Shown here: positions 28,126 to 29,298 of the stretch, in pieces
How positions within the stretch are numbered: position 1 is the first letter of the stretch
Layout of the letters: each line of letters opens with the position of its first letter
Assembly: GCA_965140415.1 (NCBI GenBank)
Contig: OZ223209.1
Span: 5,600,001-5,664,000, forward strand
Source of the DNA: Myxococcota bacterium
GTDB taxonomy: Bacteria > Myxococcota_A > SURF-8
DNA: 64,000 nucleotides
Reading direction: 5' to 3'
The notes under the pieces: model-generated
Database searches by the model: none
Told to the model about the DNA's origin: nothing
Seen by the model: only the letters and a program-made list of their open reading frames with translations
Made by a program: the position numbers and the translations under genes

Positions 28126-28140
28126 AGCGACTGTTATTAA

Positions 28141-28146
28141 AATCAA
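28141..28146 (-). promoter_or_regulatory. -35 box (TTGATT) of the circle-junction promoter of the IS110 element
   Basis: Joining right end to left end through one CT gives TTGATT-17 bp-TATTAT (-10 at 29289-29294). Confidence 0.8.
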
Positions 28147-29078
28147 GTGAATTCTGGATTCCAGTTCTCATTATTTTTTATCATGGTATTCATGATAACC
28201 AATAGTTTTCGCATGGAGGCCACCACCGCAGTCATTTTCAGTTTGCCACTGTCAACAAGTCTTTCATAGTAAGCACGAATAACAGGATTATGCTGAATTG
28301 CCACCAGGGTCGGCATGTAAAGTTGCGTACGCAACTGCCTGCGTCCTCCACCGGTCATTCTCTTTCCTCTGAATGTGCCACTGTCACGGTTGATAGGTGC
28401 AACACCGACAAGCGCGGCAATCTGCTGCCGGTTGTAAACACCCAATTCAGGCAATTCTGTAACAAGTGCATTCGCTGTAATCTGGCCTATACCCGGCACC
28501 GTCTGAAGCATTTCGGCTTTGGCTTTTAAGGCGTTGTCAGTTGAAACAGCCTTTACGATGGCCTGTTCGACCATGGCTATTTCCCGATCCAGGGTTTTTA
28601 TTACCGCTTTCAAGCTTTTAGCAATCATCTTGATATCTGCATGTTCCATGCGATTTTTCTCTCTGGTTCTCATGTCGATCAATTGACGCCGCCTTGCGGT
28701 CAAATGTTTAAGATGACGAGCATTTTCGCTTATAGGTTCCTGGGGTTCTGGTTTGAGCCTGGCTGCAAAATCGGCAATAACGGCAGCATCGATTTTGTCT
28801 GTTTTAGCCATGATTCCCAAAGCTTTTGCAAAGCTGCGAATGCGCCTGGGGTTGACCACCGAAACGGGTACCTTGTGCTTTTGAAGAAAACGAGCCCGTT
28901 TGTCTTCATAACCCCCTGTTGCCTCCAAAACAACGATGTAAGGGTCGATTCTTTGGATGTCTTTAAGAGCCTTACGCATACCTGAAGCGGTGTAATCGTA
29001 ATGTCTTCGCTTTCCACTGGAAGCCATTTCCACATCGAAACACATTTTTGAAATATCGATCCCAACACATTCATTCAT
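28143..29078 (-). CDS. IS110-family DEDD recombinase (transposase)
   Basis: [23 protein letters not shown] (DEDD), [13 protein letters not shown] (catalytic Ser), MRKLL; start at ATG 29078 behind AAGGAAGG. Confidence 0.95.
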
Positions 29079-29081
29079 GAT

Positions 29082-29282
29082 CACCCTTCCTTGCAAATGC
29101 GAGCTCATTTGTTAAAATGGCTCCAGCGACTGTTCGGGTTTACCCGGACGAAACGGACGACGGATCCGGCTACCAACGGGTTTCTGGACCCTAGGTCGGA
29201 ACGATCTCGCCGCCCGATGCTCCCCGGGCGGCCGCCCGGGGAGCATAATCATAACACCACTGTTCCAATAAACAGTCGCCTG
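29082..29282 (-). ncRNA. Predicted bridge RNA (ends approximate)
   Basis: 5' hairpin (29217-29246), target loop with UUCCGACCU (29193-29201) and GUAG (29170-29173), donor loop with ACAGUCGCU (29125-29133) and CAAG (29090-29093), each closed by visible stems. Confidence 0.85.
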
Positions 29283-29298
29283 AAAGGGATAATACAAG

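Follow-up and report, generated by a model that had tools for sequence, protein, structure and literature searches.

A single-copy IS110-group insertion sequence with a probable IS621-type bridge RNA aimed at a REP hairpin in a Myxococcota genome

What is the compact segment that sits in a palindromic repeat in the genome of a Myxococcota bacterium, and could it still move? The segment lies at positions 28126-29298, on the minus strand, of a 64,000-nucleotide stretch of contig OZ223209.1 (hereafter the window, to which all coordinates refer unless a genome position is named). A first-pass annotation, made from the letters of the window, had described it as a complete IS110 element with the bridge-RNA architecture of IS621, aimed at a repetitive extragenic palindrome (REP). 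Our analysis makes it very probable that the segment is a single-copy, intact-looking IS110-group insertion sequence (IS) whose bridge RNA is of the IS621 type and directed at a REP, and the earlier description is supported by both recombinase domains, by covariation in the RNA, by ends shared with relatives and by the REP target.

The boundaries of the element were read from its junctions with host DNA. On the minus strand, the left junction reads TCTGATCGAC-CT-TGTATTAT, with CT at 29298-29297, and the right junction reads TAATAACAGTCG-CT-ACTAT, with CT at 28127-28126; the host DNA to the right of the element begins ACTATG. The element and its ends are as follows.

28126-29298, minus strand: whole IS110-group element, both CT core copies included; 1173 bp (1171 bp with one core), from the junctions as read
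29297-29298, minus strand: left copy of the CT core dinucleotide, from the junction sequence
28126-28134, minus strand: right end, comprising the left donor ACAGTCG (28134-28128) and the right CT core copy (28127-28126)
28125-28124, minus strand: right target AC, directly after the right CT core

The CT core and all the junction strings had been noted in the first-pass annotation and were found where it had placed them, and the non-coding left end, given there as about 220 bp, measures 220 nt (29298-29079). The right end extends 17 nt past the stop codon (28142-28126). The element thus has the long left end and very short right end of the IS110 group, no long terminal inverted repeats, and an equal core dinucleotide, CT, at both junctions. 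Among the relatives, CT occupies the left junction in each of the 13 for which a left end could be recognized, and the right junction in each of the 10 that have a right end. Furthermore, the termini CT-TGTAT ... ACAGTCG-CT are common to 13 relatives from metagenomes and genomes and to 20 copies taken from three related genomes of the same family and order (locus L062 was left out as an RNA duplicate). Copies with different ends or without a CT core, to which the first reading had been attentive as counter-evidence, were not seen, the ends being the same in 20 of these 20 copies.

The non-coding left end carries the segments expected of a bridge RNA.

29217-29246, minus strand: 5' stem-loop of the predicted bridge RNA, a 30-nt perfect palindrome with 15-nt arms, 100% complementary, from a genome self-match
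29154-29216, minus strand: target-binding loop module, from folds and covariation
29216-29203 / 29166-29154, minus strand: outer stem of the target loop, with a bulged A; distal stem-loop at 29191-29178
29201-29193, minus strand: left target guide (LTG), UUCCGACCU; right target guide (RTG), GUAG, at 29173-29170; putative handshake C at 29169
29083-29139, minus strand: donor-binding loop module, from folds and covariation
29139-29136 / 29086-29083, minus strand: basal stem of the donor loop, ACCC/GGGU; distal stem-loop at 29124-29101
29133-29125, minus strand: left donor guide (LDG), ACAGUCGCU; right donor guide (RDG), UGCAAG, at 29095-29090; putative handshake G at 29089

Loop 1 has the outer stem CGGGCGGCG-A-GAUC / GAUC-CGUCGUCCG and the inner stem GGGU/ACCC, and loop 2 has the inner stem GGAGC-CAUUU / AAAUG-A-GCUC. 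The perfect 30-nt hairpin had been recognized from the outset, as had the stems of both loops, which are present in the single-sequence fold as well as in a consensus fold of 15 relatives. The left end has a minimum free energy (MFE) of -103.2 kcal/mol (z = -6.3), and none of 200 shuffles was equally stable.

Relatives were collected at 20 loci from species-representative genomes and 32 loci from metagenomes, and the left ends of the 15 closest, with proteins 50-65% identical to that of the window, were aligned for the consensus. In the RNAalifold consensus, the four guide segments fall in two internal loops; a consensus with the guides outside such loops, which the first-pass annotation had named as evidence that would undo its reading, was not obtained. 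We then scored a structure of 26 pairs in four helices, namely the outer and distal stems of the target loop and the basal and distal stems of the donor loop. Across 14 distinct sequences, 91.7% of cells pair, compared with 26.8-47.6% when the partners are slid; both sides have changed in 9 of the 26 pairs, and the covariation score was reached by 0 of 500 shuffles. The basal stem of the donor loop is short but real, its second pair being U-A in 8 sequences and C-G in 6. The left end therefore contains two modules of stem, internal loop and stem-loop with covariation, as in other members of the IS110 group.

A covariance model built from the 14 sequences was run on 32 further loci, the proteins of which are 35-51% identical over the best segment. 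It matched 28 of these more distant loci (E <= 0.01), in all cases just upstream of the recombinase gene, with 27 full-length matches and one cut by a contig end; no match at this threshold was found at the other four of the 32, namely the orphan fragment L002, L025, L026 and L049. In the resulting alignment, which was fitted to a model that favours pairing, 97.5% of cells pair and 19 of the 26 pairs are compensatory, and since slid controls reached 33.8-42.1%, the register is specific. In the alignment of the 15 closest left ends, the columns without variation comprise, among others, each stem's bulged A and the G behind each stem, which would correspond in position to the conserved flipped-out A and syn G of the IS621 bridge RNA described by Hiraizumi et al. 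(PMC11208158). A strong 5' hairpin of unrelated sequence occupies the same place in six relatives (L007, L027, L033, L034, L039 and L035), and elements resembling L008 carry a longer target-loop stem in place of the 5' hairpin.

The guides can be read by the rules described for IS621 by Durrant et al. (PMC11208160), in which the LTG reads like the top strand of the target over 7 nt and the core, the core and right target appear in the RTG as their reverse complement, and the donor loop likewise reads the junction of right end, core and left end. All 9 positions of the LDG are identical to the right end ACAGTCG-CT, and the RDG pairs with CT-TGTA at 6 of 6, one G-T wobble counted, its CAAG being the reverse complement of CT-TG. 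The matches of 9/9 and 4/4 to the circle-junction donor that had been read earlier from loop 2 are thereby confirmed, and the RDG extends to 6 nt with the wobble. The second loop accordingly carries donor guides, as members of the IS110 group do, although the donor is nearly invariant in the clade and gives identity but little covariation. In the target loop, the reverse complement of the RTG, CTAC, equals the right junction CT-AC (4/4), and the loop is complementary to the target around the core, again as in the IS110 group.

The LTG varies among relatives, and so do the flanks. In 14 insertion events in different contexts, on average 5.36 of the 7 non-core positions agreed between the LTG and its cognate flank and 3.99 between the LTG and non-cognate flanks, and the observed sum was reached in 0 of 100,000 permutations. 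Among relatives in different repeats, UCCCAUCCU is found with GCCCATCCT, UCCCGACCU with GCCCGACCT and ACCCGCCCU with ACCCGCCCT, and two elements of one genome pair UCGCACCCU with CCGCACCCT and UUCCACCCU with CTCCACCCT. The RTG also tracks the flank: in L031, the RTG is AAAG and the flank CT-TT, and in the events with a right flank the agreement is 4/4 in 8 of 11 and 3/4 in the other three. Taken together with the compensatory changes in the stems, this tracking of flanks by guides across relatives places the observation beyond chance. By its look, the left flank of the metagenome relative L031 (GGAGGGACTCGAACCCCCAACCT) resembles the 3' part of a tRNA gene in reverse and suggests that the target is a tRNA gene and not a REP.

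Guide position 1 agrees with the flank in only 2 of the 14 relatives, and the effective guide in the clade therefore spans positions 2-9; the first U of the 9-nt LTG is probably not a guide base. The target implied in the first-pass annotation, TTCCGACCTAC, had been derived from a correctly read guide but is, by the same count, one base too long at its 5' end. Tabulating the flanks of further copies, as had been advised there, showed that positions 2-9 match the flank at 8 of 8 in 19 of the 20 copies from the three related genomes and at 6 of 8 in one, and that AC follows the core in 19 of the 20. The bases next to the guides may also fit the published IS621 model, in which, once strands have been exchanged, donor position 7 pairs with the base following the RTG and target position 7 with that following the RDG. 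In the element, the base following GUAG is C, with G at donor position 7, and CAAG is followed by G, with C at target position 7 in 13 of 14 flanks; neither handshake base would pair with its own cognate DNA at position 7, as that model requires.

The protein that would use this RNA is encoded directly downstream.

28143-29078, minus strand: recombinase gene, 311 aa; catalytic D8, E52, D94, D97 and S233-G234

Both domains of the family were recovered, PF01548 (DEDD_Tnp_IS110) at residues 5-145 (E 2.8e-26) and PF02371 (Transposase_20) at residues 189-272 (E 1.8e-21). The sole matches in a sequence search of PDB were the solved bridge recombinases ISCro4 (8.5e-38) and IS621 (7.7e-34), each over residues 5-302. 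D8, E52, D94, D97 and S233-G234 align opposite D11, E60, D102, D105 and S241-G242 of IS621, where D11, E60, D102, D105 and S241 are the catalytic residues named by Hiraizumi et al. (PMC11208158; the numbering of the IS621 PDB chain is 2 above that of the paper). The 311-aa reading frame with intact DEDD and Ser motifs reported earlier is thus upheld by Pfam and by the PDB alignment. An alternative start giving 321 aa is unsupported; the 311-aa start is taken as right because relatives begin at the same place and a sequence resembling a ribosome-binding site (RBS), GGAAGGG (29090-29084), lies 5 nt upstream of its ATG. The nearest protein among 8,000 candidates scored from a collection of 5.8 billion sequences is 65% identical, and 7,913 of the 8,000 have E <= 1e-40, which together indicate a new insertion-sequence species within a very large clade.

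The target is a REP, and its features are these.

29299-29321, minus strand: REP hairpin GTCGGTCAGAAAATCTGATCGAC, the right arm of which is the left target (LT), from the junction sequence and a count of the hairpin family
about 29361-29339, minus strand: second hairpin of the REP doublet, just upstream, from sequence

The natural insertion site reads ATCGACCTAC, with the element at the foot of the REP hairpin GTCGG..CGAC-CT|AC. The genome itself contains 165 strand-wise hits to the GTCGG-N-CCGAC hairpin family (a palindrome can count twice), 46 of them followed by CTAC, which supports the earlier view of a REP as the target of the bridge RNA; ahead of CTAC, the right arms seen most often are TGCCCGAC (16), TGACCGAC (13) and TGTCCGAC (10). 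Targeting of REPs by IS110 elements has long been known, Durrant et al. (PMC11208160) citing Tobes and Pareja 2006, and for ISPpu10 the REP stem-loop itself is reported to add specificity (preprint 10.64898/2026.03.19.712850).

The hairpins of the doublet that holds the element (29339-29361 and 29299-29321) are 17 nt apart. Uninterrupted doublets at genome positions 5294683 and 5127942 are natural empty-site paralogues, in which the REP continues CCGACCTAC. A second REP family, GATGGGCAAAACAATTGCCCATCCTAC, is also present in the genome, for example in the L003 region near 1223500-1223900; related elements in G001 and L007 (guide UCCCAUCCU) have targets of this type, and no element with that guide was found in the genome studied here.

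How could such an element move? Its two ends carry what may be the halves of a promoter, and its left end carries an additional inverted motif.

29289-29294, minus strand: -10-like hexamer TATTAT in the left end, from sequence
28141-28146, minus strand: -35-like hexamer TTGATT in the right end, overlapping the stop codon, from sequence
29271-29279, minus strand: leader motif GCGACUGUU, an inverted copy of the sequence AACAGUCGC of the right end and LDG; 9 nt, 100%

Across the circle joint, TTGATT and TATTAT would be spaced by 17 nt (13 nt of the right end, CT and TG), and the arrangement TTGA(C/T/A)N, 13 nt, CT recurs in every one of the 10 relatives that have a right end and in three multi-copy families. 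A consensus scan of the integrated sequence found no promoter of sigma-70-like type on the minus strand of the left end. These observations are consistent with a promoter rebuilt at the circle junction only, which fits reports on IS621, where the promoter is rebuilt at the junction and where, according to PMC13626964, bridge RNA is weakly expressed from chromosomal copies.

The anatomy of the element, its guide-DNA matches, the covariation in relatives and the catalytic residues are all observed, and they accommodate a cycle in which transcription, circle formation and catalysis are inferred by homology. The element would excise as a circle, the joined ends of which would set the -35 TTGATT and the -10 TATTAT 17 nt apart and so drive a bridge RNA of about 200 nt, with the recombinase downstream. 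The donor-binding loop would pair with the circle junction ACAGTCG-CT-TGTA and the target-binding loop with (T)CCGAC-CT-AC where a REP hairpin has its foot. A recombinase tetramer (DEDD and Ser233) would then exchange strands after the CT core, leaving CT at both junctions.

Several observations weigh against a bridge RNA at work in a mobile element. The single-sequence MFE fold pairs part of the LTG with the RTG side (CCGAC-GUUGG) and the LDG with the 5' leader motif, and the free RNA may not display open loops. Because no open target loop appears in that fold, the consensus fold was relied on; the refolding of the left end proposed in the first-pass annotation therefore recovered the stems but showed loop 1 partly paired in the single sequence and open only in the consensus. 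Rfam 15 gave 0 matches at E <= 1 over window positions 27500-30000, and no Rfam 15 model fits this RNA. A look-up of public runs for the stretch returned two runs of one study, with no RNA run among them. Their contigs contain no joint, circle junction or empty site, one contig of run X1 spanning the element and both junctions in the integrated form only; run X2 lacks cover in one depth bin (29174-29240), a third set, X3, gave no contig for the stretch, the two runs may be the source sample, and the contigs say nothing on activity.

The fit of the element to its own site and its copy number count on the same side. The claim that the guide matches the REP target holds for the RTG, but only 6 of the 9 positions of the LTG UUCCGACCU, and not all 9, match the left flank as it stands, GATCGACCT, or 6 of 8 over positions 2-9. 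The two mismatches of the occupied site (REP arm GATCGAC) fall at guide positions 2 and 3; one of them (T for C) also breaks the hairpin's own complementarity and may postdate insertion. The best guide match, TCCGACCTAC, has 17 exact sites in the genome, 12 of them at REP hairpins, and all are empty. DNA, protein and covariance-model searches found this to be the sole full copy in the 5.98-Mb single-contig genome; the search for other copies that had been suggested yielded, besides it, three fragments of related elements and one weak model hit at 665830-665960 (L060; E 0.54, 15.3 bits), which is probably due to chance. The orphan left end L002 (genome 826062-826170) is 84% identical and carries a 5' hairpin of its own as well as the initial half of a target loop, with the same guide as the element (GUUCCGACCU) and a compensated distal stem, after which homology stops; its flank is TT-TGTATT rather than CT and is not a REP. 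Two orphan right ends, L003 (1223478-1223519) and L005 (1582715-1582743), share an identical 29-nt stretch, ATTCGCTTGATTTTGATAACAGTCG-CT-AC, without a recombinase gene, and differ within it from the right end in the window at two positions. These end fragments hint at decay of the element family in this host. Beside IS ends, a short motif, GGCCACGTGCCACCC, recurs in the L005 region, in the right flank of L056 (metagenome) and at loose contig ends, and may be another repeat family.

The alternative that survives best, and which we consider possible although clearly the weaker, accepts a true IS110 bridge element and regards it as a silent relic, either one that arrived once, for instance through horizontal transfer, or what remains of a family in decay, with the intact frame reflecting recent arrival rather than current activity. 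Its single copy, the mismatched site, the three surviving orphans and the twelve unoccupied REP sites with a perfect 10-nt match, one of them about 1.4 kb away (window 30696), would all be expected of a relic, and each of the related genomes has its own version in at least 4 to 8 copies. Conversely, the reading frame has neither stop nor frameshift and keeps all catalytic residues, all bridge-RNA stems and both donor guides are intact (the LDG matches at 9/9, compared with 8/9 in several relatives), and so are the putative promoter halves of the junction. Moreover, given the inefficient excision and weak chromosomal expression reported for IS621 (PMC13626964), low copy number is no proof of death. 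The earlier description of an apparently intact natural bridge recombinase stands for the reading frame, residues, stems and guides and has to be qualified by the single copy and the mismatches at its own site. Judging from the sequence, we lean towards an element that is competent at the present day, while the copy looks quiescent, being single, mismatched to its guide at two positions of its own site and accompanied in the genome by perfect sites that are empty.

It is far less probable that the left end is a mere 5' untranslated leader controlling the recombinase mRNA, with the guide matches arising as by-products of the REP palindrome and terminal repeats. The 3' strand of the donor-loop basal stem does overlap the RBS-like GGAAGGG, the MFE fold does pair the leader with the LDG, and the runs listed for the stretch include no RNA run. 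A leader of this kind would nevertheless leave unexplained that the LTG changes with the flank across different repeats, to a degree that no permutation reached, that the RTG changes with the flank in L031, and that the bulged A residues and the G after each stem are placed as in the solved IS621 bridge RNA (PMC11208158).

The leader motif itself calls for comment within the bridge-RNA reading. The 9-nt sequence occurs three times, in the right end (28127-28135), in the LDG (29126-29134) and inverted at 29271-29279, 18 nt inside the left end. MFE folds predict that leader and LDG pair in the element and in two relatives. L007, L067 and the orphan L002 retain the leader copy with a single change, and in L007 and the orphan a U-G wobble preserves the pairing; no leader copy was found in the further relatives checked, and the motif is confined to the closest subclade. 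In a transcript started from the putative junction promoter, the motif would lie close to the 5' end. It is conceivable, though improbable, that the leader is a built-in anti-guide that masks the donor loop until recombinase or donor DNA opens it, or else a long internal subterminal inverted repeat. The anti-guide, if real, would gate donor capture or bias insertion over excision; the subterminal repeat would be a trait intermediate between IS110-group and IS1111-group elements.

The least credible alternative, a DEDD recombinase domesticated for the host (a Piv-like invertase or other site-specific recombinase) and no longer mobile, could draw on the single copy between a methyltransferase gene (26915-27787) and a radical SAM gene (29479-30597), but the ends, CT duplication, REP site and bridge RNA are those of multi-copy mobile relatives, no inverted target sites around an invertible segment were seen within the element, and the gene is not conserved at the locus in the 20 related genomes searched, where only the radical SAM region matched (query 2414-2799). 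The short neighbouring open reading frames (29333-29650 and 27971-28171) have no Pfam match, and there is thus no sign of a split host gene.

An IS110-group element with a REP-directed bridge RNA adds to the natural bridge recombinases one more well-resolved case, which has a target and donor pair of its own and is distant from both orthologues whose structures are solved. Its family is a natural experiment in guide reprogramming, the guides UCCGACCU, CCCGACCU and CCCAUCCU of close relatives sitting in matching REP variants. As a tool it would be a candidate only, one of thousands; its main use is as a documented example and for annotation of the host, where the locus is a mobile element at a REP doublet and not a host gene.

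Among known systems, the closest parallel in organization is IS621 of Escherichia coli, an IS110-group element with a 177-nt bridge RNA (Durrant et al. 2024, PMC11208160; Hiraizumi et al. 2024, PMC11208158; PDB 8WT6). Both have a RuvC-like DEDD domain, a coiled coil and a Tnp domain with a catalytic Ser-Gly, an RNA-encoding long left end, a right end that is very short and a CT core after which strands are, or here would be, exchanged. In both, a 5' stem-loop is followed by the target loop and the donor loop, each stem has a bulged A and a G before the guide, and a 9-nt LTG slot is combined with a 4-nt RTG, the target ending CCT-AC (the wild-type IS621 target is given as ATCAGGCCTAC). Both left ends start TGTAT, a short ATA...TAT repeat surrounds the donor, REPs are targeted, and the promoter halves, putative in the element, are split between the right and left ends. 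The element differs from IS621 in its distant protein (E 7.7e-34), in a target from a different REP family, (T)CCGACCTAC, in a guide position 1 that is untracked in the clade (2/14), leaving about 8 nt effective, in a 5' stem-loop that is a 30-nt GC-rich perfect hairpin, and in the extra 9-nt leader motif complementary to the LDG.

ISCro4 (IS622) of Citrobacter rodentium (PDB 9T56) is the best match among solved structures (8.5e-38) and shares the domain order and catalytic residues, yet is a distant relative; of 72 orthologues screened in human cells, it alone is reported to have exceeded the luciferase detection limit (Perry et al., preprint 10.1101/2025.05.14.653916). As described for ISPpu10 and ISPpu9 of Pseudomonas putida, the site lies at the foot of a REP stem-loop with the right arm as left target, CT is duplicated, and the host offers many identical intergenic targets; the host and the REP sequence are different. 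ISPpu10 is reported to be multi-copy and active, with a target stem-loop that adds specificity (10.64898/2026.03.19.712850), whereas the present element is single-copy; ISPpu9 is described with a small-RNA gene downstream of its transposase (PMC12288879), whereas the RNA here would lie upstream.

With the IS1111 group, which holds its seekRNA or bridge RNA in the right end, the element shares a recombinase of the DEDD and Ser type and an RNA-guided choice of target. That group is recognized by a short left end, a long RNA-holding right end and subterminal inverted repeats of 7-17 bp beside the ends; assignment to it was rejected, the right end being 17 nt and the RNA lying in the left end, and the 9-nt inverted repeat of the element differs in lying 18 nt inside the left end and covering the right-end terminus. 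At the level of sequence, the protein domains, ends, core and guide-bearing RNA fold that define the IS110 group are all present. The mechanism was already described in 2024, and the element is a clean new example of it, not a new mechanism.

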